IMG/VR virus record: IMGVR_UViG_3300045988_165974
Span: 74,244-138,243 of that record
Direction: 5' to 3' (one strand)
DNA: 64,000 nt
Origin: a virus
Made by a program: the position numbers and the translations under genes. Numbering within the stretch: the stretch's first letter is position 1; every line of letters starts with the position of its first letter. Positions 36,227-58,946 of the stretch are shown piece by piece. Below the pieces are notes generated by a model. The model made no database searches. It saw nothing but the letters and a program-made list of their open reading frames with translations, and was not told where the DNA came from.

Positions 36227-36709
36227 ATGAGCTTTGACAAAGACATTATACTCGGAAACGTTGGAGAAGAATTAACTTTAAAATTACTTAAACAGGATAA
36301 AACTATAACAAAAATTAAAGATGTTAGAACAGAGAGAAAATTTCAAAAATGGGATATTGATTTTATCATATATAAAGGAGATAAAAAAATAAAACTAGAA
36401 GTCAAAACAGACAGATTGGCTTTTGAAACAGGAAATATTATATATGAAAAATATAGTAATATAAAATACAATTCAATCGGTTGTTTTGAGAAGACTAGAG
36501 CAAATTATATTCTTTATTATATTTTATATACAAATGTTTTGTATATCATTAATGTATTAGAATTTAATTTTTGGGTTAATAGTCATAAACCTAATGAGTT
36601 AGAAGTTATTAGAATGGGCGATAATGCAATAGGCTATTTATTTTCATTAGAAGAATTAGAAGAACATTCTTTTATTGAGAAAGTATATTTAAGGGAGCGA
36701 TTGATATGA
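36227..36709 (+). CDS. PD-(D/E)xK-like nuclease fold protein
   Basis: ...KWDIDFIIYKGDKKIKLEVKTD... has the D...ExK arrangement. Confidence 0.5.
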   Translation: MSFDKDIILGNVGEELTLKLLKQDKTITKIKDVRTERKFQKWDIDFIIYKGDKKIKLEVKTDRLAFETGNIIYEKYSNIKYNSIGCFEKTRANYILYYILYTNVLYIINVLEFNFWVNSHKPNELEVIRMGDNAIGYLFSLEELEEHSFIEKVYLRERLI

Positions 36710-37026
36710 ATAATTGTGCAACATGTTCAATGAGAGCAAAGCCTTATATTTCAAAAGAAATTGACTCACAATTAATGGATAAAGGCTTTAAATTTGACGA
36801 TGGAGCTATCTATTATGATGATTCCGAAAACAATATTCATTTTACTATTTCAGTCTTTAGAAAAGATATAATAATAGGAAATGATTTAGACGATGGATAT
36901 TCTGTACAATGTATAGTAGAAAAAGAAAAAATTACAAGTATTGATAAAATATTTGAAATATTTGAAACAATTAAAAAAAGCAAATTTAAATTAAAAGATG
37001 ATTTTAATGACGAAATTTTTAAATAG
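36706..37026 (+). CDS. Hypothetical protein
   Basis: 106-aa ORF overlapping the upstream stop. Confidence 0.55.
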   Translation: MNNCATCSMRAKPYISKEIDSQLMDKGFKFDDGAIYYDDSENNIHFTISVFRKDIIIGNDLDDGYSVQCIVEKEKITSIDKIFEIFETIKKSKFKLKDDFNDEIFK

Positions 37027-37040
37027 AAAGAAGGAGTTAA

Positions 37041-39296
37041 ATGGAAAATTGGAATTTAACAGAATTACAACAAGACATTTGGAAACAAAAATATCAATAT
37101 AAAGAAGAGTCTTTTGAAGAATGGTTAGATAGAGTGTCTAATAAAAATGAAAGATTAAAAAAATTAATTCGTGATAAAAAATTCATTTTTGGAGGAAGAA
37201 TTTTAGCTAATCGTGGACTTCATAAAAAAGGAAAAAAAATTACTTATAGTAATTGTTACGTTGTTCCAGCTCCAGAAGATTCTATAGAAGGAATTTTTGA
37301 TTGTGCGAAACAATTAGCTAGAACTTTTTCATATGGTGGAGGGGTCGGAATTGATATATCAAAGCTAAGACCAAATGGAGCTATAGTAAATAATGCCGCT
37401 AAAACAACGACTGGTTCAGTTTCTTTTATGGAACTATATTCTATGGTTACAGACCTTATAGGGCAAAGTGGAAGGCGCGGAGCATTGATGATTTCATTAA
37501 ATGTCAATCATCCTGATATTGAAGATTTTATAAATATAAAAACCGATTTAACAAAAGTAACAAAAGCAAATATATCTGTAATGATTACAGATGATTTTAT
37601 GAAGTCAGTTAAAAATAATGAGATGTACGATTGTAAGTTTTTTGTTAAAGATAATTCTCAACAAATTATTAAAAAGATAAATGCAAGAGAATTGTTTTTA
37701 AAACTTTGTTATAACAATTGGAATTTTGCAGAACCAGGTATTTTATATAAAGACAGAATAGATAATTATAATTTATTACAATATGATGAAGATTTTGAAT
37801 ATGCAGGAGTAAATCCTTGTGCGGAAGAACCACTACCCGCAGGAGGTAGTTGTTTATTAGGCTCTTTTAATTTAGCTGCTTATGTAAACTCTGGAATATT
37901 TAAAATTGATGAATTTAAAAAAGATATTTTTGTTGTAGTAGAAGCTATGAATGAAGTTTTAGATGAAGGACTTCCGTTACACCCTCTTAAAATACAAAGA
38001 GAGACAGTTAAAAATTATAGACAAATTGGAATTGGAGTTATGGGAATAGCGGATATGCTTATTAATATGGGAATTAAATATGGGTCAAAAGAATCTCTTG
38101 ATATATGTGATAAAATAGGAGAAACTTTAGCGAACAATGCTTTAAGATGTTCTGCATTATTAGCAAGAGATTACGGACCTTATCCAAAATATAAAGATTG
38201 TATACTAAAAAGTGATTTTCTAAAAGAAAATGCAGACAAAAAAACTATTAATTTAATTAAAAAATATGGATTAAGAAATAGTCAAATACTTACAATCGCA
38301 CCGACAGGGAGTATATCTACGATGTTAGGAATAAGTGGAGGAATAGAACCAATTTTTGCTTTTTCATATACTAGAAAAACAGAATCTTTATACGATAAAG
38401 ATAAATATTACAAAGTTTACACTCCTATTGTTCAAAAGTTTTTAGATGAAAATAATGTAAAAGAAGAAGAACTTCCTGACTACTTCATATCTTCTGCGGA
38501 AATCAATCCAATAGACAGAGTTAAAATGCAAGGAGTTTGGCAAAAACATATAGATGCAAGTATATCGTCTACTGTTAATCTTCCTAATTCTGCAACTATA
38601 GATGATGTATACAATATTTATACTCAAGCTTGGGAACAAGGCTTAAAAGGTATTACGATTTATCGCTCTGGATGTGCTAGAGAAGGAATTTTGACAACAA
38701 ATGATAAAAATAAAGAAAATGAATTAGTCAGAGGAGAATGGTCCCCTATTCCTCAAGATACTATATATGTAAAACGTAAAATATATACTGGCTGTGGAAA
38801 ACTAGTTTTATTTGTTGGATATAGCAAATCAGAAAATAAAATAACGGATTTTTACATTAAGAGAAGTGCATCTGGAGGTTGTGTTCATAATATAGATGCA
38901 GTAGTGATAAGTATGAGTGGAATGTTAAGACTAGGTGGTAATTTAAATAATATCGAAAAAGCATACAGAGGTTGTGGAACATGTTCTTCTTTTACTTCTG
39001 CTAGAGCTAAAGGAGAAAAATTATCAAAAGGGAAATCTTGTCCAACTGCTATTTTAAATGCAATTAAAGAAGTTGAAAAGGAATTAATTGAAATAGAAAA
39101 TGTAAGTGAAAATATTAAAGTTTCATTACAAAATTCAAAACAACTATTTTCAGACAATGAAAAAACATTTATAGAAAAAAATGGAGACAGAGCTTATGCT
39201 CAAGTAACAAATAAATGTCCTATTTGTAATAATGAATTAGAAAATAGTGGAGGTTGTCAAGTTTGTCCAAGTTGTGGTTGGAGTAAATGCATGTAA
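37041..39296 (+). CDS. nrdJ: Class II (adenosylcobalamin-dependent) ribonucleotide reductase
   Basis: ...GVNPCAEEPLPAGGSCLLGSFNL... is the active-site loop. ...GISGGIEP... follows. The C-terminal Zn ribbon reads CPICNNEL...CQVCPSCGWSKC. Confidence 0.85.
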   Translation: MENWNLTELQQDIWKQKYQYKEESFEEWLDRVSNKNERLKKLIRDKKFIFGGRILANRGLHKKGKKITYSNCYVVPAPEDSIEGIFDCAKQLARTFSYGGGVGIDISKLRPNGAIVNNAAKTTTGSVSFMELYSMVTDLIGQSGRRGALMISLNVNHPDIEDFINIKTDLTKVTKANISVMITDDFMKSVKNNEMYDCKFFVKDNSQQIIKKINARELFLKLCYNNWNFAEPGILYKDRIDNYNLLQYDEDFEYAGVNPCAEEPLPAGGSCLLGSFNLAAYVNSGIFKIDEFKKDIFVVVEAMNEVLDEGLPLHPLKIQRETVKNYRQIGIGVMGIADMLINMGIKYGSKESLDICDKIGETLANNALRCSALLARDYGPYPKYKDCILKSDFLKENADKKTINLIKKYGLRNSQILTIAPTGSISTMLGISGGIEPIFAFSYTRKTESLYDKDKYYKVYTPIVQKFLDENNVKEEELPDYFISSAEINPIDRVKMQGVWQKHIDASISSTVNLPNSATIDDVYNIYTQAWEQGLKGITIYRSGCAREGILTTNDKNKENELVRGEWSPIPQDTIYVKRKIYTGCGKLVLFVGYSKSENKITDFYIKRSASGGCVHNIDAVVISMSGMLRLGGNLNNIEKAYRGCGTCSSFTSARAKGEKLSKGKSCPTAILNAIKEVEKELIEIENVSENIKVSLQNSKQLFSDNEKTFIEKNGDRAYAQVTNKCPICNNELENSGGCQVCPSCGWSKCM

Positions 39297-46709: not shown

Positions 46710-47143
46710 ATCTAACAATAAAACAAATGGACCTGTTTAAATCTAAAAGAAAAGTATTAGTTCATTGTATTTCACAAGATTGTGCTATGGGTGCAGGAAT
46801 TGCTAAAACATTTGATAGAAAGTTTCCAAACATGAGAAATGCCCTTTTATATGAGTTATCTGAAAACAAAATTAAATATCCAGTTTCCATTCCATATTGT
46901 GAAAAGGATATGGTTATTATAAACATGATAACTAAGCCAAGATACTTTAATAAACCTACATATTCAGAGTTTAGAAAGGCTCTAATAGAGGTTAAATATA
47001 TTTGTCTTATGAATGGTTATAAAGAAATTGGAATGCCTAAGATTGGATGTGGGTTAGATAAACTGTCATGGAAGAAAGTTGAAAAAATGATAAGAGAGAT
47101 ATTTGACGATACAGATATTGATATATTGGTATGTTGGAAGTAG
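46706..47143 (+). CDS. Macro domain protein of the TARG1/OARD1 type (ADP-ribosyl hydrolase)
   Basis: ...VLVHCISQDCAMGAGIAKTF... and ...IGMPKIGCGLDKLSWKKVEKMI... parallel the HCISEDCRMGAGIA / PRIGCGLDRLQW motifs of TARG1. Confidence 0.75.
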   Translation: MNLTIKQMDLFKSKRKVLVHCISQDCAMGAGIAKTFDRKFPNMRNALLYELSENKIKYPVSIPYCEKDMVIINMITKPRYFNKPTYSEFRKALIEVKYICLMNGYKEIGMPKIGCGLDKLSWKKVEKMIREIFDDTDIDILVCWK

Positions 47144-47151
47144 GTGAAATT

Positions 47152-47310
47152 ATGCCAACAATAATAATTGAAGTTGTAACAATAAAAAATACTTTAGAAC
47201 AACACATTTTTATAAACGAAAGTGAAAAGTGTAAAGAATTTATAAAGAACAAAAGTATTGAAGAATATATTTATTCTATAGTAGAAGTCCCTGGTGAAAT
47301 TTATAATTAA
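47152..47310 (+). CDS. Hypothetical 52-aa protein (not in the ORF track)
   Basis: The ATG follows a GTAGGTGAAAT RBS. Last + strand ORF before the strand switch. Confidence 0.4.
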   Translation: MPTIIIEVVTIKNTLEQHIFINESEKCKEFIKNKSIEEYIYSIVEVPGEIYN

Positions 47311-47344
47311 AGTATTGACATATTTTTATAATTATGATATTCTA

Positions 47345-47478
47345 TATGCATAGAAATATTTTTGCTTTGAGTGAATGTTCTCAAAAATATTACTTATTAT
47401 AGAACACTCTTACTGGCATTTGAGTGTTCCTTTCGCAATAAGAAAAAAATTAGGGACGGGAGTTACCCCGTCCCTTTT
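47345..47478 (+). ncRNA. Candidate small RNA (promoter-like box, hairpins, terminator, no ORF)
   Basis: TTGACA at 47315-47320 has a weak -10. The 8-bp hairpin GAACACTC (47402-47409) / GAGTGTTC (47422-47429) has a competing partner GAGTG..TTCT (47369-47381). It ends at the strong terminator. Confidence 0.3.
47453..47478. terminator. Bidirectional intrinsic terminator at the convergence of the early (+) and late (-) blocks
   Basis: GGGACGGG (47453-47460) pairs with CCCGTCCC (47467-47474). TTTT follows on the + strand and a T7 run follows on the - strand. Confidence 0.75.
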
Positions 47479-47505
47479 GCTTTAGTTTTTTATAATATAA
47501 AACAA

Positions 47506-48321
47506 TTATCTTTCAAATACTTCTATATATTTACTTGATGCAGTTACATAAATTCCTGATTTAGTAAGATACATATCAGTTCCAGTTCTTTCTATTTTCT
47601 TTACTATAGTTAATACTGTTCCAACTTCAAGTTTTCCACATACAGAATCTTCATTGAAGTTCGGAGCATTATGCATATTTATTTCCTTAATTACTCTTAA
47701 GTATTTAGTTTTAGTAGTTGTAGTATTTGGAACTTGAGTTACTTTACCTTTCCCATTTGTACAATTTACTATATCGTTGACTTTTATTTTTCCTTTTGTT
47801 AAATTATAACAGTCTAATTTAAACTGTTCGTATTTTTTAGGATTTAAAACCATATATATTGGACATAACTTATAAGCTCTACCAACAACATCTGTATGTC
47901 TTATTATATCCTTTTTACAATTTAGTCCTTTTCTATCACATAGCCATGCACATAATTGAACCATACTTCTATAAGTTGCATCTGTATAATGATTATCTTT
48001 ACCTGTTGTCGCAACTTCAATTCCAACCGCATATGAATTAGCACTATTTGTAGCATAACACATTTCATTAATTGGTATTAGTTGATATATTGCCCCATCA
48101 AGGTCTATTACATAATGAGCAGATGCATAAATATATTTACCATTTACTTTAGTTCCATTTGCAACGACATTGTTAAAGTAAGATACTGTTGCACTTCCTT
48201 TTACATCTGCTTGACCTGTGTAATGAATGGCAACCTTTGTATAATTTAATGATGTTCCAGGTCTGCCATATTTATTTTTCTTTTGCCATTTTTCAATAAC
48301 TTTTGGTTTTTTAACTGACAT
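47506..48321 (-). CDS. Endolysin: N-acetylmuramoyl-L-alanine amidase (Amidase_2/PGRP) plus an SH3-like C-terminal domain
   Basis: ...VAIHYTGQADV...ASAHYVIDLDGAIYQLIP...NSYAVGIEVA...IIRHTDV... Confidence 0.85.
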   Translation of the reverse strand: MSVKKPKVIEKWQKKNKYGRPGTSLNYTKVAIHYTGQADVKGSATVSYFNNVVANGTKVNGKYIYASAHYVIDLDGAIYQLIPINEMCYATNSANSYAVGIEVATTGKDNHYTDATYRSMVQLCAWLCDRKGLNCKKDIIRHTDVVGRAYKLCPIYMVLNPKKYEQFKLDCYNLTKGKIKVNDIVNCTNGKGKVTQVPNTTTTKTKYLRVIKEINMHNAPNFNEDSVCGKLEVGTVLTIVKKIERTGTDMYLTKSGIYVTASSKYIEVFER

Positions 48322-48381
48322 TTAACATCACCTTTCTTTAATTATTTTTATGTAAATTTGTCAACTTATTTTGTTTGATTG

Positions 48382-48789
48382 TTATTTATCTTTATTTTCA
48401 GTTGAATCTCTTAGTTGTTCTAAAACATCTTTTAATGTATCAGGAATAGGAATGAATTCGCTTGCATTCTCTAATAAGCTTATAGATTCATTTGCAATAA
48501 AAAACATTATAACCATTTCTCTTATAGCAATATTACTTGCAGTTACTTTTTGTATTTCGTATGCAACAGCTATCACTATAAATATGAATACTTTTCTAAT
48601 TATTCCCTTATATCCAATTTTGCTAGATAATTTTTTATTATATATAGCTTTTAAAACACCTGCTATATAGTCTAAGACAACTAGAGTTAGCATTGTGCTT
48701 AATAACATATCCCAACCTCCTAAGTGCTGTCCTATGAATCCACCTAATATGGCTGCAAAAATACTTATAGTATTAAAATATTTTTCCAT
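48382..48789 (-). CDS. Holin (phage_holin_4_1 / TcdE-like)
   Basis: ...LTLVVLDYIAGVLKAIYNKKLSSKIGYKGIIRKV... with 3 TM helices, directly upstream of the endolysin. Confidence 0.8.
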   Translation of the reverse strand: MEKYFNTISIFAAILGGFIGQHLGGWDMLLSTMLTLVVLDYIAGVLKAIYNKKLSSKIGYKGIIRKVFIFIVIAVAYEIQKVTASNIAIREMVIMFFIANESISLLENASEFIPIPDTLKDVLEQLRDSTENKDK

Positions 48790-48892
48790 AAAAATCTTCC
48801 TTTCTAATTTTATTACAATAAATTACTGTTTCTTTTTCAAATATCCACCTCCTGTATTATAAAATATCTATATTAAAATCCTAAAATAGGCA

Positions 48893-48918
48893 ATAAAAAA
48901 GCCACCATAAAAGGTGGC
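48893..48918 (-). terminator. Intrinsic terminator (- strand)
   Basis: GCCACC (48901-48906) pairs with GGTGGC (48913-48918). A T6 run follows on the - strand. Confidence 0.6.
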
Positions 48919-49334
48919 AAGCTCCATAAGTATATCTTTCTTTTTTTTGGCAAGTAGGAGCAATATATGTAATAATACCATAATTACCCATGTATTTCAA
49001 TAAAAAAATGCATAAAGCAATTTAGCATTTGGAATTATTTACATATATAAACAAACCCAGATTAATTTCTAGGCTCATTTCTGTATCCTGTATGGTAAAA
49101 GTGTATATTCATATTATATTTGCCTAGATAGATTTTATACTTTAAATCATATGTTAAAATTTTGTAAAATTGGAATATTTTCAAAGACAAAAATCATATG
49201 CTATGATATGTGTAACGATTATATAGGGAGCGATAGCGACCGAGAGTAATCGTGAAACGGTCATATCAAGTTTATAGCAATTTAGGATATCTATGTCTTT
49301 TAAAATCTTTACATAAAATTATATATTTTTCCAG

Positions 49335-49357
49335 AAAAATAAGGAGGTTTCCCTCCT
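49335..49357 (-). terminator. Hairpin immediately 3' of the ATPase gene (- strand)
   Basis: AGGAGG / CCTCCT stem at 49342-49357, T-rich after it on the - strand. Confidence 0.5.
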
Positions 49358-49360
49358 TTT

Positions 49361-51616
49361 TTATTTTGGCAATTTAATTACAAATGCAGAATAAACACTT
49401 TCTTCACTCCTAATTAAACAGAGTGCATGAAATCTTTTCAAATTGACAAAGTCAGATTCTGTATAGCCTTCCTTAATAAATAAGTCCTTGAGTTCATAAA
49501 AATTCCTTATATCGCCTCCTGCAAGGAGAAAGAAATTCAATCCACTGCTTAATATCGCTTCTTTACATTTTTTATTACATTGATTAAGAAAGTGTAGACT
49601 TATAGTAGGAATAAAAGAATATTTTCTACATTCTGTTAAAATATCTTGAAATATAAGTTGAGCAGTTGGAAATAGATTTATTTCATCAATAAATATTTGA
49701 GTTCTAGTCTTTGCATTGAGTTGTTTAGCTAACCACACCTTACTAAGATAAAATGTAGCAATTAAATCTCTTATATTTCTATTAGTGAAATCCTCTTCTC
49801 TGGCTTTTATTAATATAACTTTATTTTCATTAAGAGCTTTAACAAAATTAATATTATCAACTCCTGATTTATTATAAGCAAGTTTTGTATATAAATTAGT
49901 TTTTAATATGCTAATTCTGTCTATAATTCCATCAATTTTTGTGTCATAATTTTCTATATCCCCATTTTTATTTTCTTTATCTAATTCCTTTAAGTCATTT
50001 ATTTCATCATCTAACAAGACCTTCTCATTGCCACTTAGAAGCTCTATTAAATCTCTTCTAGTCTTAGGATTCGTTAAAATTTTTATAACCTCTTTAAAAC
50101 TTGAATTTGAGTTCTTGTAAAAAGAAATTGTACAAGCAGCATTAAAATATCTTAACATTCTTGGAGTTAATTTTGTTTCTGCATTTATCGTATTTAGGAG
50201 CATATAAAGTTGTGATGATTTTTCCATACATTTCGCTAATTTTCTGTATTTATCTGGACTACTACAGATAAGTTCATTAAAACAGAATCCCTGTAATTGA
50301 TTTACATTACTACAATCTATCTCAATGAGCTTATCTTTAGGTGTTATTTTTTTAATACTTTCTGCTAATTCACAACTTTTTATTATATCTAATACTACTA
50401 ATCCGTCTCCTTTTTTAATAATTGATTCGGCTAGTTTAGTCATAAAATGAGTTTTCCCTGAACCCATTCCTCCTATTAAAGCCTTTCCAAGTCTACTAAA
50501 ATTTTTATCAGTAGAATCATAAACAGATTCATTCTTTAAAGAAGTTCCTAAAAATATGTCTCCCTTTTTTAAAGAGTTTGGAATGGATTTATCATATATA
50601 TTATTATGTTCAATGCTTTTATATTGTTTGATAATAGAATCGCCAGGTAGAGCTACAAAATTAGCATCTTCATATATAGAAGTATTAAGAACTTTTACAT
50701 ATGGTAATACTGGTTTAGTGATGTCTATTTCTTTTTTTAATTTTTTATATATAAACTCATTGTCATCAATTATTTCTCCATATGTCCCTACTAGACTCTC
50801 TGTAATCGTTTTAGAACGACTTTGAGAACCTCCCTTTGTAGTTATTAGTATTTGGGTTTTACAAATGTCTGAGGTACTTTTTTTAATGGTGTTATTACTT
50901 AATTTATCAAAGACAACTTTTCTTTCAGTTTGTTTTATATCAAATATAAAATCTAATGTAGAGTTTATAAAATCAATACTATAATCTAATATTTTTATTA
51001 CTATATTAAGGAGTTTATTAGATGTATATTTTACAGAACTTTCTTTATATTCTTTTATGAATTTTTGACAAGAAGCTTTAAAATAGTTTAGCTGCTTTTC
51101 AGAGGTAGGAATAAAATTATATAGAAGGCTAACTTCTTCATCATTTTGTAAAAGTTCTATAATTGTCATATTTGCATTAAGAAGCTCATTGTTTCTCATA
51201 TCTGCATTAGTAGAGAAAAAATCTTTTTTCTTGTACATAAGTTGATATTGAATTCCATTTTCTATTAGTGGAATATTATCAAGTTCTTCTATTTCTACCG
51301 ACTTCCAAACCTCTTTGAATTTAACTTTAAATTTAGAATAAAAGATTTTTGGAACAATGAAATAAAAATTAATTTTTTCTTTAGTAATATAGACATAATA
51401 AGATGCTTTTAATTGAGTTCCTATTACTAATTTCCTATCTTCTATGTGGATTAATTTATTAAGATTTATAAACATTTTATTGACTAATCTTAAAATTTCA
51501 TGAGTTTTATTGTTTTTTATGGATTTTGTAGGAATGAGCTTAAGATAAATATATTCTTGATTTTTAATTTCTATATACTTTGAAATTGGAATACTATGCA
51601 TTTGTAATAACTCCAA
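49361..51616 (-). CDS. FtsK/HerA/VirB4-superfamily P-loop ATPase (VirB4/TraE-like architecture)
   Basis: Walker A ...LIGGMGSGKTHF..., then ...LVVLDIIKSCE..., Walker B ...QIFIDEINLF... followed by ...ECRKYSFIPTISLHFLNQ. About 370 aa of non-ATPase N-terminal domain precede these. Confidence 0.6.
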   Translation of the reverse strand: MELLQMHSIPISKYIEIKNQEYIYLKLIPTKSIKNNKTHEILRLVNKMFINLNKLIHIEDRKLVIGTQLKASYYVYITKEKINFYFIVPKIFYSKFKVKFKEVWKSVEIEELDNIPLIENGIQYQLMYKKKDFFSTNADMRNNELLNANMTIIELLQNDEEVSLLYNFIPTSEKQLNYFKASCQKFIKEYKESSVKYTSNKLLNIVIKILDYSIDFINSTLDFIFDIKQTERKVVFDKLSNNTIKKSTSDICKTQILITTKGGSQSRSKTITESLVGTYGEIIDDNEFIYKKLKKEIDITKPVLPYVKVLNTSIYEDANFVALPGDSIIKQYKSIEHNNIYDKSIPNSLKKGDIFLGTSLKNESVYDSTDKNFSRLGKALIGGMGSGKTHFMTKLAESIIKKGDGLVVLDIIKSCELAESIKKITPKDKLIEIDCSNVNQLQGFCFNELICSSPDKYRKLAKCMEKSSQLYMLLNTINAETKLTPRMLRYFNAACTISFYKNSNSSFKEVIKILTNPKTRRDLIELLSGNEKVLLDDEINDLKELDKENKNGDIENYDTKIDGIIDRISILKTNLYTKLAYNKSGVDNINFVKALNENKVILIKAREEDFTNRNIRDLIATFYLSKVWLAKQLNAKTRTQIFIDEINLFPTAQLIFQDILTECRKYSFIPTISLHFLNQCNKKCKEAILSSGLNFFLLAGGDIRNFYELKDLFIKEGYTESDFVNLKRFHALCLIRSEESVYSAFVIKLPK

Positions 51617-51845
51617 TTATTATATTGAGAATTAGGTATATACAAGGTATCATAAATGCCCATCTTTTACCTTTTTCATGTCCAAATACATACATCAATA
51701 GGGCAATGAATCCTGCGACAAGACAAACATTAAAAGAAAATTTTTCAATAGTAACTAAAAGCTCATATCCAGTTTCTCTTAAAGATTCTATCGGATGTAA
51801 AATAATATCTAATTTATCCATTAATTGTATAAATTTTTCTTCCAT
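51594..51845 (-). CDS. Small membrane protein (VirB3/PrgI-like by position only)
   Basis: 83 aa with two C-terminal TM helices. It overlaps the ATPase start by 23 nt. Confidence 0.55.
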   Translation of the reverse strand: MEEKFIQLMDKLDIILHPIESLRETGYELLVTIEKFSFNVCLVAGFIALLMYVFGHEKGKRWAFMIPCIYLILNIIIGVITNA

Positions 51846-51857
51846 AATTTTACCCTC

Positions 51858-52232
51858 CTATAATTTAATCATTGAAAATAATTTTGGATAAAATGTTAAA
51901 AGTATATATATTAAAAAATATTGGATTCCAGAAGTTGTGGCTTGACGGAAATCTGCTCCTTGTAGTGCATTTTCTATTATGCTTTTTATTCCCATACACA
52001 TACATCCGTATTGAGCAAATATCATTAATAAATCTAATATTTGATTTGCTACATTTGATATTTCTACTTCTGTAGTTGCTCCATATGAGATTAAGCCTTT
52101 GTGCATAAATATAGCTATTAATATAATAAGTCTTTTGTATTCTACTTTACTTAGGCTATTAAGAAACTTTTCAACAATAGTATGTTCACTTTCCATCATT
52201 TGTTTATATTCTGAAAAAGTATAAGATTTCAT
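51858..52232 (-). CDS. Polytopic membrane protein (TrbC/VirB2-like pattern, weak)
   Basis: 124 aa with three hydrophobic segments. Confidence 0.55.
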   Translation of the reverse strand: MKSYTFSEYKQMMESEHTIVEKFLNSLSKVEYKRLIILIAIFMHKGLISYGATTEVEISNVANQILDLLMIFAQYGCMCMGIKSIIENALQGADFRQATTSGIQYFLIYILLTFYPKLFSMIKL

Positions 52233-52313
52233 GAATAATATTCCCCCTTTATGGTTATTTTAAAAATAAAACGAGGTGATAAAACAATGGGTGAAGCTTT
52301 ATTTTGGTTTGGA

Positions 52314-52502
52314 CTATCTTTTGCTTTCAACTGCTTGCGTAGTTTGATTTAGCTCTGAATACATTTTCTCTCTTAAAACATATTTGATATAGGCACTCTT
52401 ATTCCCGTATGCAGAAAATTTTTCTTCTAACCAGGAATATAAAAGAGTGTCTTCCATATTGTTCTTGAAACTTACTTCAAGTGATTTCTTATTTTTTCTC
52501 AT
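52314..52502 (-). CDS. Ribbon-helix-helix (CopG/Arc-like) protein
   Basis: 62 aa. ...KSLEVSFKNNMEDTLLYSWLEEK...NKSAYIKYVLREKM fits a beta-alpha-alpha pattern. A GGGAGGAAAA RBS precedes the start. Confidence 0.5.
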   Translation of the reverse strand: MRKNKKSLEVSFKNNMEDTLLYSWLEEKFSAYGNKSAYIKYVLREKMYSELNQTTQAVESKR

Positions 52503-52562
52503 GAATTTTCCTCCCTTTTACTGTCTTTTAATAGATTATATGTAAAAGTACTGAAAATATTC

Positions 52563-52592
52563 CAAAAAAAATTCCCCTAAATTTTCTAGGGG
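52563..52592 (-). terminator. Intrinsic terminator after the recombinase gene; palindrome CCCCTAAATTTTCTAGGGG
   Basis: 19-nt palindrome at 52574-52592. A T8 run follows on the - strand. Near-identical to 53972-53990. Confidence 0.7.
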
Positions 52593-52657
52593 AAAAGTCT
52601 AAAAAGACTAACATACAAATAGAACAACTACTAATATATTCCCCAATTTTATTATGA

Positions 52658-53641
52658 TTATACAATTGAACATTTTCCATATTGATAATTTACTTTATCC
52701 ATAGACGTTTTAGCATATATTTGAGTTGTAGTAATATTCTCATGACCTAAAAGAAATTGCACAGTTTCAATATCTGCTCCTGCATTAAATAAAGAAGTTG
52801 CAAAAGTATGTCTTAACTTATGAGGAAATATAATTGGAAGAGTATTTTTTCTTTTAGATATATTTGCTAATATCTTTTGAATTGCTCTTACTCTAAGTCT
52901 TTTATAAGGTTTTCTTTCAGATGTAAATAGAGCTTCATTTTTGCCTTTTCTATTATCTAAATATTGTTTTAAGTATAGTTTACATTTATCATTGAATAAT
53001 ATCATTCTTTCTTTATTTCCTTTACCAATAGTTTTTAATCTGTTTAAAGAAAAGTCTAATTCAAAGATATTTGTTTTTTGAATTTCAGAAACTCTCATTC
53101 CTGTTGCTAACATAAATTCAACTAAAGCTCTTTCTCTATCTGTTTTGCAGCACATTCTTAGATTTTCCATTTCTTCTACAGATAAAGGTTCTCTAATTCT
53201 TTGAGGTTCTTTAAGTTTTCTTAATTTCTTTGTTGGGTTTTTCTCTATGTATTCTTCCTCAACTAACCAACTAAAGAAGGATTTAATAACTGAAATTAAT
53301 CCATTTACAGTTGATATTTTTACAGATTTCTTTTTAAAGTTTAAATAAGCTTTTAAATCAACTATTGTAATTTGAGGAATCTCTTTGTTTACATAATCTA
53401 AGAAATATTTTAAAGTATATATTCTGTTTTTAATAGTTCCACTTGCATAGTCTAAAGTTTCCATGTCTTGTTTATATTCCTCTAAAATTTCTTCTGTATT
53501 GTTTTCTTTTTTGTTTATTAACTCAACATCATAGTTTCTTACTACATCATATAATATTTTTTCTAAATCATTTTTTTCTATACTATTATCAACAATTTTA
53601 TTCATTATTTGTTTTATTATTTTTTCATTATCTTTATTCAT
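52658..53641 (-). CDS. Tyrosine recombinase / integrase (XerC/D-like, full length)
   Basis: ...[19 protein letters not shown]..., ...[13 protein letters not shown]..., ...[16 protein letters not shown]... An N-terminal SAM-like core-binding domain is present. Confidence 0.85.
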
Positions 53642-53777
53642 TTTTTATTCCTCCTTTATTTAAATTATATTTACATAATATAACATTTTAGTTATATTTT
53701 CAACAAAAAAAATATATTTTTAATTAAATATTTATATTTTTATTATTTTGATGTATAATATAATAAGGAGGTGAATT

Positions 53778-53978
53778 ATGGATATTTCAACACAAATAAG
53801 AAAAATAATGCTAGATGAAAAAATAAATATTGTAGAATTAGCTAAGAGACTAAATACATCACAACCAAATGTTTCTGCAAAGCTTAAACGAAACAATTTC
53901 AACATTAAAGATTTAGAAAGATTTTGCAATGCTTTAGGTTATAAAGTTGAAATCATATTTAAAAAAGAAAACCCCTAG
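53778..53978 (+). CDS. XRE-family HTH regulator
   Basis: ...INIVELAKRLNTSQPNVSAKLKRNN... It is divergent from the recombinase. An extended -10 (TGTATAAT) and an AAGGAGGTG RBS lie upstream. Confidence 0.75.
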   Translation: MDISTQIRKIMLDEKINIVELAKRLNTSQPNVSAKLKRNNFNIKDLERFCNALGYKVEIIFKKENP

Positions 53979-53996
53979 AATTTCTAGGGGTTTTAT
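53972..53996. terminator. Palindromic hairpin/terminator CCCCTAGAATTTCTAGGGG overlapping the XRE stop
   Basis: 19-nt palindrome at 53972-53990, followed by TTTT. Confidence 0.65.
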
Positions 53997-54007
53997 ATTT
54001 CATAAAT

Positions 54008-54167
54008 TTAGATTTTATTTATGTTCACAATATTTTTAAATTGTGAATCAATTTCTTTAAACTTAGTTGTATTTGATTTTCCATTTTCATCTATAACCAA
54101 ATTTGGTGATGTGTAATGATAGTCAAAACCATAGTTCCCTTTTCTTGTTTTTATTTTTTTTGCCCAT
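54008..54167 (-). pseudogene. Truncated, frameshifted duplicate of the 5' end of the CotH fibre gene
   Basis: The RBS and ATG (54167) are followed by a T8/A8 run (54154-54161) that shifts the frame. In the shifted frame it reads ...KKIKTRKGNYGFDYHYTSPNLVIDENGKSNTTKFKEIDSQFKNIVNINKI*. The CotH gene reads MGKKMKTRKGKDGYDYPYTSPNLVIDENGKSNTTKFTEIDSQFKDIAKK. Confidence 0.75.
54019..54052. repeat. Fibre box a: TTCACAAT-ATTTTTAA-ATTGTGAA (complete inverted repeat)
   Basis: Arms at 54024-54031 and 54040-54047, spacer at 54032-54039. Confidence 0.8.
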
Positions 54168-54249
54168 TATTTGAACCTCCTTTAAATCATACTATTATCC
54201 CCTTATAATTATCTACATTAACTATAAATGATTATAAAGGAATAATCAA

Positions 54250-56649
54250 CTAACTAATAGTTATTCCTTCAAATATTGTAGCATAAGGCGCAGTCCCATT
54301 ACCTTTTGCAAATCCAATTTTCACATAATGTGTATTTGCATCTAATTGATAATTCACATAAGACTTAGCAAAACTTCTCTTTATGAAAATTTTTTTTTCA
54401 TCATATTCAACTAATCTTAAATTATTTATACTATCAGATACATCTCTTGACACATTTATTGTAATTGTTCCTTGTTTTTCTATGTAATTCTTTAATAGCG
54501 CATTATCATTTGACTCTACAAATTCTCCGTTGTCATTTATATAGCCTTTTAAGTAATTAGGCATACCTGTAACTGTTACATTACAAGTTGCCGTTTGACT
54601 ACCACAGATAACAGTTATAACACAGCTACCATTATCAATTGGAGTTACAACTCCTTTTTTTACCGTACATATTCCAGTAGGAGATACACTCATAATAACT
54701 TTATCAGTTGTATTGTATGGAATTAATGTTACTTTTAATGTTTGTGAGTCTGTTGTATTGATTCCTAATGAAGTATCACTTAATGCTAAACCTGTACAAG
54801 CAATAGTATCTTTTGACAATTTATAATATTTATCATTAATGTCTACAATTAAATCATTCAAATCCCCATCATTAATTGCAGATGCTGAACTTAAAATTAA
54901 TTTTATATATTTTGTATTTGTTTGCAAGCTATCAACCCCTGATACTACTTTTTTACCTGGCAAACCACTTCCAATATAGTTATAATTTTCATCATAACAT
55001 CTAATTACATGAGTAATTAGATTATTATTTACATCAGAATTTATAGAAACCGATGTCGTATCTACAGAAATATAATTTGTTCTTACATCCATCGTTGAAA
55101 TTTCTTCAACGCCTGTTTTATAATTTATAGTACCTAATTCATAATATAAACTTTCACCATCCGTAATAATTTCTTGATTTTCCATAACAGTATCCATATA
55201 TACAAATCTTTTATTTGCCCAATCTAATATATAAGTTTTAGGGTCTGTTATTTGGTTGCCATCAAAATTAGTACCAGTATATTTTACTTCATAGTTTTTT
55301 GCTAACCAAACATCAGATACATTACCTAGAACATGATTTATACTATCTTCAACTTGTTCAGCTGTAAATAAAGTTGTTCTTAATTCTTTATATTTAGCAA
55401 TTATTTCAGATTTAAAATTCTTCCATAATTTATCAAATAATCTACTGGTTTTACAGCCAAAAGAACTTAATTCTATATTTGTGCTACTTTTACCAACATT
55501 ATAAGTAGTACCAAATGCATAATCCATATCCCAAAACGTAGCATACCATTTAGCTTTATCTGGGAAATATAACATATTAAAGTTTTTAGCTTTACTATCA
55601 ATCATTGCACAAGTATACATGATTACAAAATAATTTATAAGATATTCTCTATCAAAATATGTTTCTAAGTTAGCTATAAACTCTTCGTCACTTACTTCAC
55701 TCACCCATTGTATTGCGTTATATAATACATCTGGGTGATTAGAAGTTTTATCCCATACTCTATCTTCCCAGTAATAATCAATCTCTGCATGGGCATCTGT
55801 AAAATTTTTGCCTGCATTACTACCACTATTTAAATTTCCATAAATGAATGCTCCAGAATTATCTCCATTATTTGAACCGTTATTAAGTCCAATTTGATAA
55901 CAAAGGTCTGCTTGTTGTGTAACAGAACCATCTTCTCCTAATACTTCTTCATTTAGGTTATATACTTTATCATCTTGTTTCAAGTTCCAGAAGTAAATTC
56001 CTACAAATTCATTATTTACATAAAGAAGTATCGGAAATCCATCAACAGTATATCTAGCGCCTGTTCTAGGCAAAGGTGTTAAATATTGATAAGATTTAGT
56101 AACATAATGCATCATTAAATTGTTCATTATATTAGTCCCTTCACCAAAGTTACATTTTAAATGATAATTATTTGTTTTATGCCAATCTTTAAATTGTCGG
56201 TTATTTTTAGTAGTTCTAGATTCATCTGTAAATAATTTTATTTTATAATTCTTTTTAGGAAATGAAAGTGACCCACTTCCTTGATAAGATATAGTAGCAT
56301 AATCTGTAAAGTTTATATTATTCAATTCATCATTGAAATTACAAGTTACATTTTTATAATTGTCAGCACTAATACCAGTTAAATCACCTACTACATTAAC
56401 AATAGGTAATTTTTCAACTAAATCTGATAAAGTATAACCTAATTTATTTAGTAATTTTAAGAATAAATCATTTTCACCTAAATTAGGATTTACATTCTCT
56501 ATTTTCTTCGCAATATCTTTAAATTGCGAATCAATTTCTGTAAACTTAGTTGTATTTGATTTTCCGTTTTCATCTATAACTAAATTTGGTGAAGTGTATG
56601 GATAATCATATCCATCTTTTCCTTTTCTAGTTTTCATCTTTTTTCCCAT
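54250..56649 (-). CDS. Tail fibre / receptor-binding protein with a CotH kinase-like domain and a Big_2-like Ig domain
   Basis: ...KKNYKIKLF...NYHLKCNFGEGTNIMNNLMMHYV...VDGFPILLYVNNEFVGIYFW...NFNMLYF...WDMDYAFG is the CotH pattern. ...LKVTLIPYNTTDKVIMSVSP...CVITVICGSQTATCNVTV is Ig-like. Confidence 0.75.
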   Translation of the reverse strand: MGKKMKTRKGKDGYDYPYTSPNLVIDENGKSNTTKFTEIDSQFKDIAKKIENVNPNLGENDLFLKLLNKLGYTLSDLVEKLPIVNVVGDLTGISADNYKNVTCNFNDELNNINFTDYATISYQGSGSLSFPKKNYKIKLFTDESRTTKNNRQFKDWHKTNNYHLKCNFGEGTNIMNNLMMHYVTKSYQYLTPLPRTGARYTVDGFPILLYVNNEFVGIYFWNLKQDDKVYNLNEEVLGEDGSVTQQADLCYQIGLNNGSNNGDNSGAFIYGNLNSGSNAGKNFTDAHAEIDYYWEDRVWDKTSNHPDVLYNAIQWVSEVSDEEFIANLETYFDREYLINYFVIMYTCAMIDSKAKNFNMLYFPDKAKWYATFWDMDYAFGTTYNVGKSSTNIELSSFGCKTSRLFDKLWKNFKSEIIAKYKELRTTLFTAEQVEDSINHVLGNVSDVWLAKNYEVKYTGTNFDGNQITDPKTYILDWANKRFVYMDTVMENQEIITDGESLYYELGTINYKTGVEEISTMDVRTNYISVDTTSVSINSDVNNNLITHVIRCYDENYNYIGSGLPGKKVVSGVDSLQTNTKYIKLILSSASAINDGDLNDLIVDINDKYYKLSKDTIACTGLALSDTSLGINTTDSQTLKVTLIPYNTTDKVIMSVSPTGICTVKKGVVTPIDNGSCVITVICGSQTATCNVTVTGMPNYLKGYINDNGEFVESNDNALLKNYIEKQGTITINVSRDVSDSINNLRLVEYDEKKIFIKRSFAKSYVNYQLDANTHYVKIGFAKGNGTAPYATIFEGITIS
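56502..56535. repeat. Fibre box b: TTCGCAAT-ATCTTTAA-ATTGCGAA (complete inverted repeat, inside CotH codons ~39-47)
   Basis: Arms at 56507-56514 and 56523-56530, spacer at 56515-56522. Confidence 0.8.
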
Positions 56650-56669
56650 ATGATTTCCTCCTTTATATT

Positions 56670-56698
56670 AAAGAAAGAGCAGATTGATTTCTGCTCTT
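56670..56698 (-). terminator. Intrinsic terminator between the SGNH and CotH fibre genes
   Basis: AGAGCAG (56676-56682) pairs with CTGCTCT (56691-56697). T-rich downstream on the - strand. Confidence 0.6.
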
Positions 56699-56717
56699 GT
56701 ATTGTTTAAATTTTATT

Positions 56718-56746
56718 TTAATAATATTTTTAAATTGCGAACTTAT
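56718..56746. repeat. Fibre box c: half site, spacer ATTTTTAA plus arm ATTGCGAACTTAT, non-coding
   Basis: Spacer at 56726-56733 and arm at 56734-56746. It lies 8 nt 3' of the SGNH gene stop. Confidence 0.75.
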
Positions 56747-56753
56747 TTATATT

Positions 56754-58442
56754 TTATAACCATGTTAACATCCAATTATAAACAGGTATAGCTATGCCAT
56801 ATAAATGTCCTAAATCATTAGGGTGCACTGCTCCAGTGGCTTCCCCTGTAGCTTCTGTTCCATCTGCATAATATGTAGAAACATTAGTATTATTATAAGG
56901 TCTTAATACTGGATTTTGATGATAAATATCTAAGAATGGTATCCCTAAATCTTCACACACATATTTTTGTGCAGTTACATAATCACTATACCAACCATGA
57001 CCATATGATTTAGGATTGTTAGACCAATACTTTGTTATATCATTATCTCTAGGTGTACTTGAAATCATACCTATTTTTGCTTTAGGATATTTTTCAATTA
57101 AATCTTCCAATAATCTCCTTACTATTCCATATTCAGAAAACACTGTTTTATCATCAGTTTTTTCACCTACAACAGGAGGAACACCATTTTTCGCATTATC
57201 ACCACCATCGGGATAAATATCTATAAATCCACCTCCACCACCTGTTCCATCATTCTGATTTCCCATTATGAGTATAATATCGGGATTGGCAGGGTAAAGA
57301 GTAGACCATTTATTTTCTATACGATAAATAGTAGAACCTCTTTGATAATAATTTTTAGCAAATCCAGTTCCTCCTTGTCCGTCATTGTGGATAGTTAAAC
57401 CTAACCATTCAGCTAAATATTCATGCCATACTTTTGTAGCAGTTGAATTTTTTTCTACAATACTATCTCCACCAACAATCATAACCTTGCTTTTAAATCT
57501 ATTTATATTATCAAAACTTGGTAAATTTAGTGCTTTTTGAAATTTTTCTTTATACCCTGTATTAAAATCAAAACTACCCTCTGATTGTTCATCTGATGAT
57601 AATTCTACTGTTACTGTTTTTGCACAAGCGAATCTGAAATAAGTAGCATTATATGTGTCTAAATTTTCAAATACAGTTGTATTCTTATTATAAGAAGAAT
57701 AATTAATTTGTTGTATAAATGTTTTATTAGCATCAAACAAATTAATACTATTAATTGTATTTGAAGAACAAGTAATTGTTAATTTTGTAAATGAAATAGG
57801 TAAATATTGAGTGACCTTATAATTACCATTCACAAATTCATTACCATTAGAAATAGAATATCCTTCTTTCCATTCTATTTCATCAACCCCCGTACTTGCT
57901 TGCGTTTCTATTAGAAATGATGTTTTATTAGGAGTTACTGTTCCATCCCCTACTGTTAATGCAGATAAAGTTCCATCGTCTATTTTAGATTGAATTATAT
58001 TTGTTAATTGTTCATCTGTAACAACTGCTGTAGGAATTTCAACAGTTGCTATTTGAGTACCATCATTCATAAGTTTAAGTGTTTGCCCACTCATACTCAT
58101 AGTTATTTTGGATAAGTCTACATCACTTCCACCTATTTCGATTCCATCACCTATAAGCGTTCCATCTTGTTTCTTGATATATACTTTTCCGTCAGAATGT
58201 TTTGTAAGAGATAAGTTCGCAATATCTTTAAATTTATCGTTTACTTCATTTATTGCAGGTATTATTTTTTTATTATCTGTTTCTAGCGTATCATGTTCAC
58301 TATCTGATATTCCTTCCATAGAAGTGTCATCTTCAATTAGATTAATCTGATTTTCTTTTACTGTTTCAATATCTGTTCTAGCTTTAGCGTCTTTAAGATT
58401 AATTTCTATTCCATTTATCTCAATTGATTTTGCATCTGCCAA
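56754..58442 (-). CDS. Tail fibre/spike protein with a C-terminal SGNH/GDSL esterase domain
   Basis: ...VMIVGGDSIVE... (GDS), ...GQGGTGF..., ...IMGNQNDG..., ...VHPNDLGH... (DxxH). Confidence 0.75.
   Translation of the reverse strand: MADAKSIEINGIEINLKDAKARTDIETVKENQINLIEDDTSMEGISDSEHDTLETDNKKIIPAINEVNDKFKDIANLSLTKHSDGKVYIKKQDGTLIGDGIEIGGSDVDLSKITMSMSGQTLKLMNDGTQIATVEIPTAVVTDEQLTNIIQSKIDDGTLSALTVGDGTVTPNKTSFLIETQASTGVDEIEWKEGYSISNGNEFVNGNYKVTQYLPISFTKLTITCSSNTINSINLFDANKTFIQQINYSSYNKNTTVFENLDTYNATYFRFACAKTVTVELSSDEQSEGSFDFNTGYKEKFQKALNLPSFDNINRFKSKVMIVGGDSIVEKNSTATKVWHEYLAEWLGLTIHNDGQGGTGFAKNYYQRGSTIYRIENKWSTLYPANPDIILIMGNQNDGTGGGGGFIDIYPDGGDNAKNGVPPVVGEKTDDKTVFSEYGIVRRLLEDLIEKYPKAKIGMISSTPRDNDITKYWSNNPKSYGHGWYSDYVTAQKYVCEDLGIPFLDIYHQNPVLRPYNNTNVSTYYADGTEATGEATGAVHPNDLGHLYGIAIPVYNWMLTWL
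58211..58239. repeat. Fibre box d: half site, arm ATAAGTTCGCAAT plus spacer ATCTTTAA, inside SGNH codons ~70-77
   Basis: Arm at 58211-58223 (the exact reverse complement of 56734-56746) and spacer at 58224-58231. Confidence 0.75.
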
Positions 58443-58946
58443 TTAAATCACTTCCTTTATTTTTTCAGAATTATTATCATAATCTATCTTACCTGTAATA
58501 ATAATTTTTTCTTCATTTGGATTATATTCTAATTTAATACTTCCACTCGGAATATCTGGAGTAGTTCCTTCTGACATGATATCCCTATTCACCTCATATA
58601 AAAATGTATTTAAAGGAACGACTTTTTCAGTTGTTGATTTATCTTCAATAATAATTTGACAAGAATATTTTCCTTCAATATTTTTATATTTATCTTCTAA
58701 ATTACAGTAATATAAATTATTGTTTTTGTCATATTTTGTAAGCTCTTTCTTTAACACATCTCCCTTTGGATTTTTTATATATAAAGTTGTTTTAAAATTT
58801 GTTAAATCAATCTTAAATCCATTTCTTGTAATATTAATATAAAAATCACTTGTTTGATTATCACTTAAAGAGAACTCCATTTTTAAACCATTTTCTTTTC
58901 TTGAGATTAAATCTAAATAAATAGCTTTGTATTTTTTATTTAGCAT
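58443..58946 (-). CDS. Hypothetical tail-associated protein
   Basis: The start is taken at Met-7 (58946), behind an AGAGGTGA RBS. Confidence 0.55.
   Translation of the reverse strand: MLNKKYKAIYLDLISRKENGLKMEFSLSDNQTSDFYINITRNGFKIDLTNFKTTLYIKNPKGDVLKKELTKYDKNNNLYYCNLEDKYKNIEGKYSCQIIIEDKSTTEKVVPLNTFLYEVNRDIMSEGTTPDIPSGSIKLEYNPNEEKIIITGKIDYDNNSEKIKEVI

Follow-up and report, generated by a model that had tools for sequence, protein, structure and literature searches.

Organization of the Locus

We analyzed a 64,000-nucleotide stretch of phage DNA, hereafter the window, which spans positions 74,244 to 138,243 of IMG/VR virus record IMGVR_UViG_3300045988_165974. Our subject is a block of genes at positions 49,335 to 54,007 of the window, and above all an operon on the minus strand that encodes, in order, a soluble protein of 62 amino acids (aa), two membrane proteins of 124 and 83 aa, and a large VirB4-like P-loop ATPase. 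Upstream of the operon are the genes for a tyrosine recombinase and, on the plus strand, an XRE regulator. An earlier reading of the sequence, which we call the original prediction, had named all of these open reading frames (ORFs), and we located every one of them. It had also treated them as a single self-contained inserted island. That view did not hold up, since the gene order in relatives resolves the block into two separable units. The best overall explanation, in which our confidence and our doubt are about equal, is an exchangeable XRE-recombinase unit next to an autonomous membrane ATPase operon of the SPP1 gp31-gp32 type.

The window is AT-rich (~27% GC), with early genes on the plus strand up to ~47 kb and late genes on the minus strand thereafter. 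The block sits between two fiber genes (GDSL, 58442–56754; CotH, 56649–54250) and the lysis genes for a holin (48789–48382) and an amidase (48321–47506), all four on the minus strand. Its GC content is that of its surroundings, with no shift in composition. A megablast search of window positions 47000–58500 against phage records gave no match.

Several signals in the DNA suggest that the ATPase operon is an autonomous transcription unit, with its own promoter-like site and with terminators on both sides. The promoter-like site that had been proposed can be read from the minus strand as TTGGAA (52565–52560) and TATAAT (52540–52535). The two hexamers are 19 nt apart, outside the 16–18 nt that our consensus promoter scan required, so the scan did not list the site. 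The strong terminator proposed between the recombinase and the operon is also present (52594–52572, minus strand), as an intrinsic terminator with a 10-bp stem, four G-C pairs and a run of eight T residues. At the other end of the operon, a bidirectional intrinsic terminator lies just 3′ of the ATPase stop codon (49341–49358) and is kept in relatives. In all, the region has 13 terminator-like sites where 2.7 would be expected, and the order of terminator, AT-rich promoter-like region, ribosome-binding site and first gene is kept in five other lineages. The ~570 bp of non-coding DNA expected beyond the ATPase gene corresponds to a 571-bp spacer (48790–49360) without a convincing ORF.

The ATPase Belongs to the SPP1 gp32 Family and Is Predicted to Have a VirB4-Like Fold

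The ATPase gene lies on the minus strand at 49361–51601. A mechanical ORF call begins at a TTG codon and gives 751 aa (51616–49361). The true start is most likely the ATG at 51601, which gives 746 aa, because close homologs are all 734–750 aa long. The original prediction of a translationally coupled 751-aa protein was therefore right about the coupling, as the stop codon of the 83-aa gene overlaps the ATPase start codon (8 nt from ATG 51601), and probably wrong about the length. Elsewhere in the window, a second ORF of 751 aa (37041–39296, plus strand) preceded by two small ORFs (36227–37026) was considered as a duplicate cassette and rejected: it encodes a ribonucleotide reductase and has no similarity to the ATPase.

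Over residues 11–749 the ATPase matches PHROG 5156 (phrog_5156, "unknown function") with an E-value of 1e-79. SPP1 gp32 matches the same family at E 1e-288, and SPO1 gp27.4 is also a member. A profile of 75 ATPase sequences aligned with SPP1 gp32 over 740 columns in hhalign (probability 100%, E 1.6e-51), at an identity between the window protein and gp32 of only 17–20%. Full-length relatives of the window protein were found by tblastn in 78 phage records, and the equivalent counts were 107 for SPP1 gp32 and 146 for SPO1 gp27.4. An exhaustive HMMER search with the ATPase returned 458 clusters at 50% identity, and no exact copy is on record.

The Walker A (GGMGSGKT) and Walker B (IFIDE) motifs and the CRKY...SLHFLNQ segment that had been picked out by eye are all present. 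In the 75-sequence alignment the Walker A residues G382 and K383 and the Walker B residues D639 and E640 are invariant, as are two arginines and two residues of the N-terminal domain. Hydropathy analysis found no membrane helix in the protein. Searches of Pfam, NCBIfam and the PDB with the single sequence were uninformative, and the profile gave only weak P-loop matches to PDB sequences (DptH, DotL, TrwB, HerA and B204). The TrwB_AAD_bind model reached E 0.022 with the window protein, below its cut-off, and is passed by the homolog from a Clostridium tetani plasmid. Neither the VirB4 models of Pfam (AAA_10, CagE_TrbE_VirB) nor those of NCBIfam matched, which speaks against VirB4 membership by sequence.

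Structure prediction was more informative. An AlphaFold2 model built on the 75-sequence alignment had a mean predicted local distance difference test score (pLDDT) of 90 and a predicted TM-score (pTM) of 0.76. The best Foldseek match of the whole model was full-length TrwK/VirB4 of R388 (E 2e-13, ~870 aligned columns), followed in order by TrwB, HerA and the C-terminal domain of Thermoanaerobacter VirB4 (4AG6). The C-terminal domain superposes on TrwB (E 1e-11, TMt 0.6) and on HerA (E 5e-10). We also modeled the N-terminal domain by itself (first 372 residues, pLDDT 84), and its top eight PDB matches were all TrwK/VirB4 chains (E 4e-4 to 1e-2), with modest TM-scores of 0.31–0.37. The original prediction of a VirB4-class protein with an N-terminal domain of ~370 aa thus agrees with both models, and as judged from them the assignment holds for both domains.

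The likeness to VirB4/TrwK (R388; PDB 7O42, 7O43 and 8RTD) extends to the combination of an N-terminal VirB4-type domain with a C-terminal RecA-like P-loop domain, to the lack of a membrane helix in the ATPase, and to the presence of a two-helix protein just upstream with a pilin-like protein before that. The differences are an identity of ~10%, N-domain TM-scores of 0.34–0.37 against those structures, and the unmatched family models. TrwB/VirD4, FtsK/SpoIIIE and HerA resemble the window ATPase in the superposition of the C-terminal domain. Unlike those proteins, the window ATPase has no N-terminal membrane helices, and its ~370-aa N-terminal domain matches only VirB4. In addition, neither the NurA partner of HerA nor the gamma domain of FtsK was seen with it.

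Two Membrane Proteins and a Small Basic Protein Precede the ATPase

Hydropathy analysis supports the earlier assignment of both intermediate ORFs as membrane proteins. The 83-aa protein (51594–51845, minus strand) has two clear membrane helices that form a hairpin at its C-terminus, where one glycine is invariant and the loop reads KGK, and it occupies the position of VirB3 and of SPP1 gp31.2. This topology is kept throughout a 28-member family alignment, even where the neighboring ATPase is only 29–30% identical to that of the window. None of the 28 members matched the VirB3 model of Pfam. One gave a weak match to TraL (E 0.014), and the recurrent weak matches were to an unrelated two-helix family. 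Similarity to SPP1 gp31.2 was undetected at the sequence level. By analogy, the topology and the coupling to the ATPase gene would be compatible with a VirB3 role.

The 124-aa protein (51858–52232, minus strand) is in the position of SPP1 gp31.1 and has two to three hydrophobic helices. Members of its family begin with a long leader that contains one membrane helix, followed by an Ala-rich junction and two hydrophobic helices joined by a G-G..K/R loop; as read from the alignment, this is the layout of a VirB2/TrbC propilin. TrbC/VirB2 (PF04956) was the sole recurrent Pfam family for its homologs (6 of 30 at E ≤ 0.1, mostly weak), and the window protein itself had no Pfam match. The best TrbC match was that of the homolog on the Clostridium botulinum plasmid pCLD (E 1.8e-6, above the gathering score), which RefSeq names TrbC/VirB2 and which hhalign aligns with the 124-aa family (probability 79%, E 1.6e-5). 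A Bacillus member of the PHROG that holds gp31.1 also matched TrbC weakly (E 0.0027). These recurrent TrbC matches and the coupled hairpin protein are in line with the original prediction that the order small membrane protein, small membrane protein, large ATPase mirrors VirB2-VirB3-VirB4.

The first gene of the operon (52314–52502, minus strand) encodes a basic soluble protein of 62 aa with no membrane helix detectable by hydropathy. It belongs to the SPP1 gp31 family: the window protein (E 1e-6) and gp31 (E 3.6e-5) both match phrog_4223, and the two co-align. A 24-member alignment has the conserved pattern VSFK..D..LY..L...S.YIK.L..DM and a beta-alpha-alpha arrangement. This arrangement is what the earlier label of ribbon-helix-helix (RHH)-like amounts to, since neither the 24 members nor their profile matched an RHH family in Pfam or the PDB. 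However, hhalign matched the family to the protein in the ParR position of a related phage locus (L050) with a probability of 79% (E 1.5e-5). The 62-aa protein probably binds DNA and may be an adaptor or regulator of a ribbon-helix-helix, ParR-like type.

The Operon Is the Counterpart of SPP1 Genes 31 to 32

The original prediction did not recognize the gene combination as a described phage system. It does correspond to one. In their re-annotation of SPP1, Godinho et al. (2018, PMC6316719) described gp32 as an early, non-essential protein of 836 aa whose C-terminus resembles TrwB, VirB4 and FtsK in HHpred. The gp32 gene comes after genes for gp31 and for two proteins with membrane helices, three in gp31.1 and two in gp31.2, and the module was discussed as a possible trans-membrane translocon (PMC6316719). 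The window operon shares with it full-length homology of the ATPase, a first protein of phrog_4223, the gene order, and a location adjoining lysis genes. The partner proteins are also alike in size (~120 aa with two to three membrane helices, and ~85–105 aa with two membrane helices and a gene that overlaps the ATPase start). The two modules differ in that the SPP1 genes come after the lysis genes inside an early operon, whereas the window cassette is a separate unit that comes before them and lies next to a recombinase gene. They also differ in that gp31.1 has no detectable similarity to the 124-aa protein. We have high confidence that SPP1 genes 31-31.1-31.2-32 and the SPO1 gp27.4 module have their clostridial counterpart in the window operon.

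The XRE-Recombinase Unit Is Separable from the Operon

The recombinase gene (52658–53641, minus strand) encodes a Xer-like tyrosine recombinase of 327 aa with matches to Phage_integrase (E 3e-36) and Phage_int_SAM_4 (a SAM-like N domain). Its NCBIfam scores are below the cut-offs for XerA (198 vs 220), XerC (191 vs 335) and XerD (178 vs 330). Divergent from it is the gene for an XRE/Cro-type helix-turn-helix regulator of 66 aa (53778–53978, plus strand; Pfam HTH_26, E 3e-8). This regulator gene shares a bidirectional terminator (53968–53994) with a truncated fiber gene on its other side.

A comparison of related loci, here numbered with the prefix L, showed that the composition of the block varies among related phages. 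In the lineage of the window (L004, L005, L025 and L082) the order is fiber, XRE, recombinase, cassette, a spacer of ~580 bp, holin and amidase, and XRE co-occurs with the recombinase in all four. A ~140-kb lineage (L006–L008 and L077) has the recombinase and the cassette, with its lysis genes elsewhere and a second recombinase across the fiber genes. In ~75-kb phage-plasmids (L009–L011 and many IMG/VR contigs) the cassette lies between tail and lysis genes and lacks a recombinase beside it. In a fourth lineage (L050, L012, L058 and L076) the XRE-recombinase slot is filled by ParM, a ParR-position protein and a 103-aa ORF; in L050 and L012 ParM/ParR take the place of the recombinase. Overall, the recombinase adjoins the cassette in L004–L008, L025 and L077 and is absent there in L009–L011.

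The 62-aa, 124-aa, 83-aa and ATPase genes stay together as an operon in ~30 loci and in no fewer than three phage backbones, whether the recombinase is there or not. The recurrent order in these ~30 loci is a soluble protein of 53–67 aa, a gap of ~80–400 bp, a protein of 120–148 aa with hydrophobic helices, a hairpin protein of 57–117 aa, and the ATPase adjacent or overlapping. When we surveyed viral loci by their endolysin, about half of 46 (amidase 67–98% identical) carried the cassette within 10 kb. The other half of these loci lack it within that distance. The cassette is best read as an ancient accessory operon, with the XRE and recombinase genes as an exchangeable neighbor.

Additional evidence comes from repeats. 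A 36-nt imperfect direct repeat (81%) is formed by the terminator regions at 52557–52592 and 53955–53990, and it brackets only the XRE and recombinase genes. Since the terminator regions that bracket this 1.4-kb unit form a direct repeat, the arrangement suggests that the unit was inserted or exchanged at its present site. No direct repeats flanking the whole block were found. It is plausible that XRE and the recombinase make up an exchangeable lysogeny or plasmid-maintenance unit at a hotspot between the fiber terminator and the next operon. For this part of the block, the earlier suggestion of a phage lysogeny module plus a moron comes closest.

Another earlier suggestion was that the block is a decayed integrative and conjugative element (ICE) or a satellite carried by the phage, in which the recombinase would be the integrase. 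A recombinase beside a VirB4-like cassette, and a truncated gene at one edge, are what such an element might leave behind. However, the recombinase and the cassette are freely separable from each other in relatives, the repeat brackets only the XRE and recombinase genes, and the GC content is unshifted. Moreover, the same four genes, with catalytic residues intact, are found in more than 100 phage genomes, including those of virulent phages. We consider a decayed element very improbable indeed.

The truncated gene is real (54010–54165, minus strand). It is a frameshifted 5′ remnant of a fiber (receptor-binding protein) gene and repeats the 5′ end of the CotH fiber gene: positions 54019–54164 and 56502–56647 form a 146-nt direct repeat with 86–90% identity, in which the ribosome-binding site and ATG are kept and there is one indel. 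The stub had been taken for the edge of an inserted ATPase block. It instead marks the replacement of a fiber cassette, because relatives have different fiber genes at that spot. These include Metallophos genes, beta-helix plus hexapeptide acetyltransferase-like genes, or CotH plus Big_2 genes (L004 5234–7489, L006 2058–7558 and L007 4450–7597). The tail-fiber locus is a cassette-exchange hotspot. In L006–L008, two paralogous Xer-like recombinases bracket the fiber genes, and no inverted repeats for recombinase-driven fiber inversion were found in L006 and L007. Genes for IS605-type TnpB (OrfB_IS605 / Cas12f-like TNB) have inserted at differing sites in the close relatives L005 (11463–12590), L009 (16128–17270) and L010 (17066–18208) and are absent at the matching positions of the window.

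A Conserved Non-Coding Element Lies 3′ of the ATPase Gene

The spacer between the ATPase and holin genes holds a conserved element (49154–49283) made up of an AT-rich block (49154–49180) and an imperfect hairpin of ~85 nt (49199–49283). About 270 bp just 3′ of the ATPase gene is 73–79% identical at the DNA level across three phage lineages, and the core of the element is also present in L018 and L039. Of 28 IMG/VR contigs in which its motif was found, 27 have the ATPase gene immediately upstream. RNAalifold predicted 21 base pairs in the hairpin, nine of which have compensatory double changes. The folding z-scores are weak (−2.2 and −1.9), and about five independent lineages contribute. On the plus strand the hairpin contains an extended −10 sequence, TGCTATGAT, at 49199–49207. 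The covarying element could be an RNA or a DNA site and could act on either strand. An Rfam search over 47000–57000 gave nothing credible, and no match covered the element.

Closer to the holin gene there is a promoter-like sequence (TTGAAA-17-TATTAT with TG, 49000–48972, minus strand) followed after ~55 nt by a terminator (48918–48901). This pair could provide a short leader, an attenuator or a small RNA before the lysis genes. Rfam came nearest with a sub-threshold signal just upstream that resembles a rimP leader (49002–49107, E 0.11).

The Family Is Found in Phages and Plasmids of Endospore Formers

The hosts of the matching phage records are Bacillus, Geobacillus, Lysinibacillus, Brevibacillus, Alicyclobacillus, Clostridium and Terrisporobacter. 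Family members also include CP-51, SP-10, phage G and many others, and both virulent and temperate phages carry the cassette. The exceptions in the host list are two records of "Deep-sea" thermophilic phages, which we take to infect Geobacillus, and one doubtful "Microcystis" record. The latter (Microcystis phage MaeS, MT362618.1, 73423–74982) has a gp32-family ATPase closest to those of 80-kb Bacillus phages of the Basilisk, Stahl and Slash types and a genome as large as theirs, and its cyanophage host label looks doubtful. In the collection searched, there was no match in Staphylococcus phage K or Listeria phage A511, which are Herelleviridae like SPO1. Among plasmids, matches were limited to Clostridium (31) and Bacillus (6). 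Apart from the records just named as exceptions, these searches found the family only in phages and plasmids of endospore-forming Firmicutes.

Some of the plasmids are low-copy toxin plasmids, such as C. botulinum pCLD (L046, 11038–14397) and a C. tetani plasmid (L047, 6848–10331). No type IV secretion system (T4SS) gene is annotated within 8–12 kb on either side of the cassette in these two plasmids. In pCLD the gene annotated as TrbC/VirB2 overlaps the ATPase start, and the neighbors are DNA methyltransferase genes.

These carriers bring up the idea of a minimal conjugation-type apparatus, that is, a pilus-like conduit or T4SS helper that moves phage-plasmid DNA or protein between cells. The VirB4-like fold in both domains, the TrbC/VirB2-like partner, the many phage-plasmid and plasmid carriers, and a Replic_Relax protein encoded beside the ATPase in SPO1 would all fit with it, and group I C. 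botulinum toxin plasmids with the homolog are transmissible (PMC2884020, PMC5814558). We dropped the idea that the cassette alone explains conjugation of those plasmids; a separate secretion-like region could account for their transfer. Unlike a T4SS, the cassette was not accompanied by VirB6, VirB8, VirD4, a relaxase or a cell-wall hydrolase among the neighboring genes of the loci that we inspected. For the window block itself, the original prediction had already remarked on the lack of a relaxase, coupling protein, VirB6 and hydrolase, and we agree. The carriers are phages and non-mobilizable plasmids (36 of the 37 matching plasmids are typed as such), and the cassette is also present in the strictly virulent SPP1 and SPO1. 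Together with the unmatched VirB4 models of Pfam and NCBIfam, this makes a conjugation-type apparatus decidedly improbable.

The Cassette Is Repeatedly Fused to Partition Genes

In seven of the clostridial loci that we fetched (L032, L033, L034, L037, L038, L041 and L042), the gp31-like gene is directly preceded by a ParM/Alp gene with which it overlaps. The gp31-like gene is thus in the position that ParR has in ParM/ParR/parC and Alp7R in Alp7A/Alp7R systems. SPO1 has a similar arrangement (L048, 1980–7490), with an operon that runs from gp27.9 (Alp7A/ParM-like, ALP_N E 2e-27) through 27.8 to 27.5, gp27.4 (the ATPase) and gp27.3. The last of these matches Replic_Relax (PF13814, E 3e-12), and its start overlaps gp27.4. 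The SPO1 record annotates none of gp27.9, gp27.4 and gp27.3 with such functions. In addition, a ParA gene adjoins the cassette in 0105phi7-2, and ParM-like genes lie 0.3–6 kb from it in phiCp-D, L016, L019, L035 and L009–L011. The family has thus been fused repeatedly to partition genes of the ParM/ParR type. We know of no described partition system that includes a VirB4-like ATPase.

These fusions bear on two other explanations. In the first, the cassette is an unrelated host-envelope moron that happens to lie by a lysogeny module; it would remodel the membrane or export phage proteins, with no role in DNA handling, and its neighbors would be coincidental. VirB4 acts on pilin proteins and is not known to act on DNA, which counts for this explanation. 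XRE and the recombinase could plausibly serve lysogeny or maintenance, the cassette forms a transcription unit of its own, and ~15 of ~25 lineages have no partition gene in the flanks that we fetched. However, chance is a poor explanation for the overlapping ParM fusions in seven clostridial loci and for the SPO1 operon, and the conserved first gene resembles the gene for a ParR-position protein. For these reasons a coincidental moron seems quite unlikely to us.

In the second, the cassette serves superinfection exclusion or defense: an early, membrane-anchored ATPase complex would block or expel incoming phage or conjugative DNA. This had been one of the earlier suggestions, and it is still a live rival, although an unsupported one. 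The ATPase has membrane partners, the carriers include virulent and temperate phages, and the cassette lies in a variable region between tail and lysis genes that is present or absent among phages with related endolysins. The SPP1 module is early and non-essential (PMC6316719). PADLOC also returned a weak mad8 match to the P-loop region of the ATPase (E 3e-7), but this match is to a generic P-loop, and PADLOC-DB 2.0 matches none of the other cassette proteins. Exclusion would also leave unexplained the operon fusions with ParM/ParR and Replic_Relax, the presence on toxin plasmids that are not phages, and the confinement to spore formers. In known cases, exclusion is usually the work of a single small membrane protein, which counts against this rival as well. 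We regard exclusion as an unlikely explanation that deserves to be kept in view.

Possible Role in Handling Extrachromosomal DNA

Our interpretation of the operon as a membrane machine is as follows. By analogy with VirB3 and VirB4, the 83-aa hairpin protein would dock an oligomer of the ATPase at the cytoplasmic side of the membrane. The pilin-like 124-aa protein would be the membrane substrate or partner of the ATPase, and the small protein from the first gene would bind DNA. Such a machine could tether, segregate or translocate the extrachromosomal DNA of its own element at the membrane, for example into the forespore. We put this forward tentatively, with more doubt than conviction. The cassette would be dispensable for lytic growth under this interpretation, and carriage of phage or plasmid genomes into the forespore ("virospore" entrapment) is one task of that kind. 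SPO1 does form virospores, in which phage genomes are entrapped in spores, and an influence of its ParM gene 27.9 on this entrapment has been proposed (PMC12991052).

A role in DNA handling would jointly account for the restriction to spore formers, the fusion to ParM/ParR genes, the non-essentiality for lytic growth and the linked cis element. It would also account for the presence of the cassette in virulent phages, phage-plasmids and low-copy plasmids.

Several observations weigh against a role in DNA handling. VirB4 proteins are not themselves known to act as DNA pumps. The host restriction may reflect a phage gene pool held in common and not sporulation. Our genome scan used patterns from close relatives, as the 75-ATPase alignment was too diverse for the locus finder; a narrower alignment reached only Peptostreptococcaceae and Clostridium genomes, so the taxonomic range across genomes is under-sampled. 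Linkage to ParM or ParA was seen in only ~10 of ~25 lineages. In the window itself, hmmsearch with a ParM/Alp profile from the fused loci detected no ParM-like ORF (E ≤ 1e-5), and centromere repeats were not identified, which sets the window apart from known partition systems. The family is also carried by integrated prophages (TPDSL_ph2 and the chromosomal loci L013, L014, L018, L030, L037 and L038), and these weigh against the idea because such prophages would enter spores with the chromosome. As for the individual proteins, the VirB3 assignment is one of topology and translational coupling, the ribbon-helix-helix assignment is one of pattern, and hhalign gave a probability of only 1% for the 124-aa family against SPP1 gp31.1. 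In the literature, the only work that we found on gp32, gp27.4 or any phage VirB4-like protein was the SPP1 re-annotation, with no functional study.

A more specific form of the DNA-handling idea is that the cassette encodes a dedicated minimal machine, derived from VirB2, VirB3 and VirB4, that tethers or pumps the DNA of the element at the sporulation septum and so secures its inheritance in the forespore. The ParR-like adaptor of the gp31 family, and possibly the cis-acting hairpin beside the operon, would guide it. This specific form is unlikely to be correct. If it is, SpoIIIE would have a counterpart encoded by mobile elements, and the formation of virospores by SPP1 and SPO1 would be explained.

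The proposal of a translocon in SPP1 dates from 2018 (PMC6316719), and the gene combination had been noted but left uncharacterized. What is new here is the host range limited to spore formers, the fusions to partition genes, and the covarying hairpin 3′ of the ATPase gene. The cassette is among the most widespread conserved modules of Bacillus and Clostridium phages, including SPP1 and SPO1, that have no assigned function. Its VirB2/VirB3/VirB4-like design, its range among spore formers and its fusion to actin-type partition genes turn a hypothetical ATPase into a concrete hypothesis. Should the forespore hypothesis fail, the module would still be a good candidate for a new exclusion system. 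If it is true, it would identify how extrachromosomal elements secure places in the spore and would add a non-conjugative branch to the VirB4 family.

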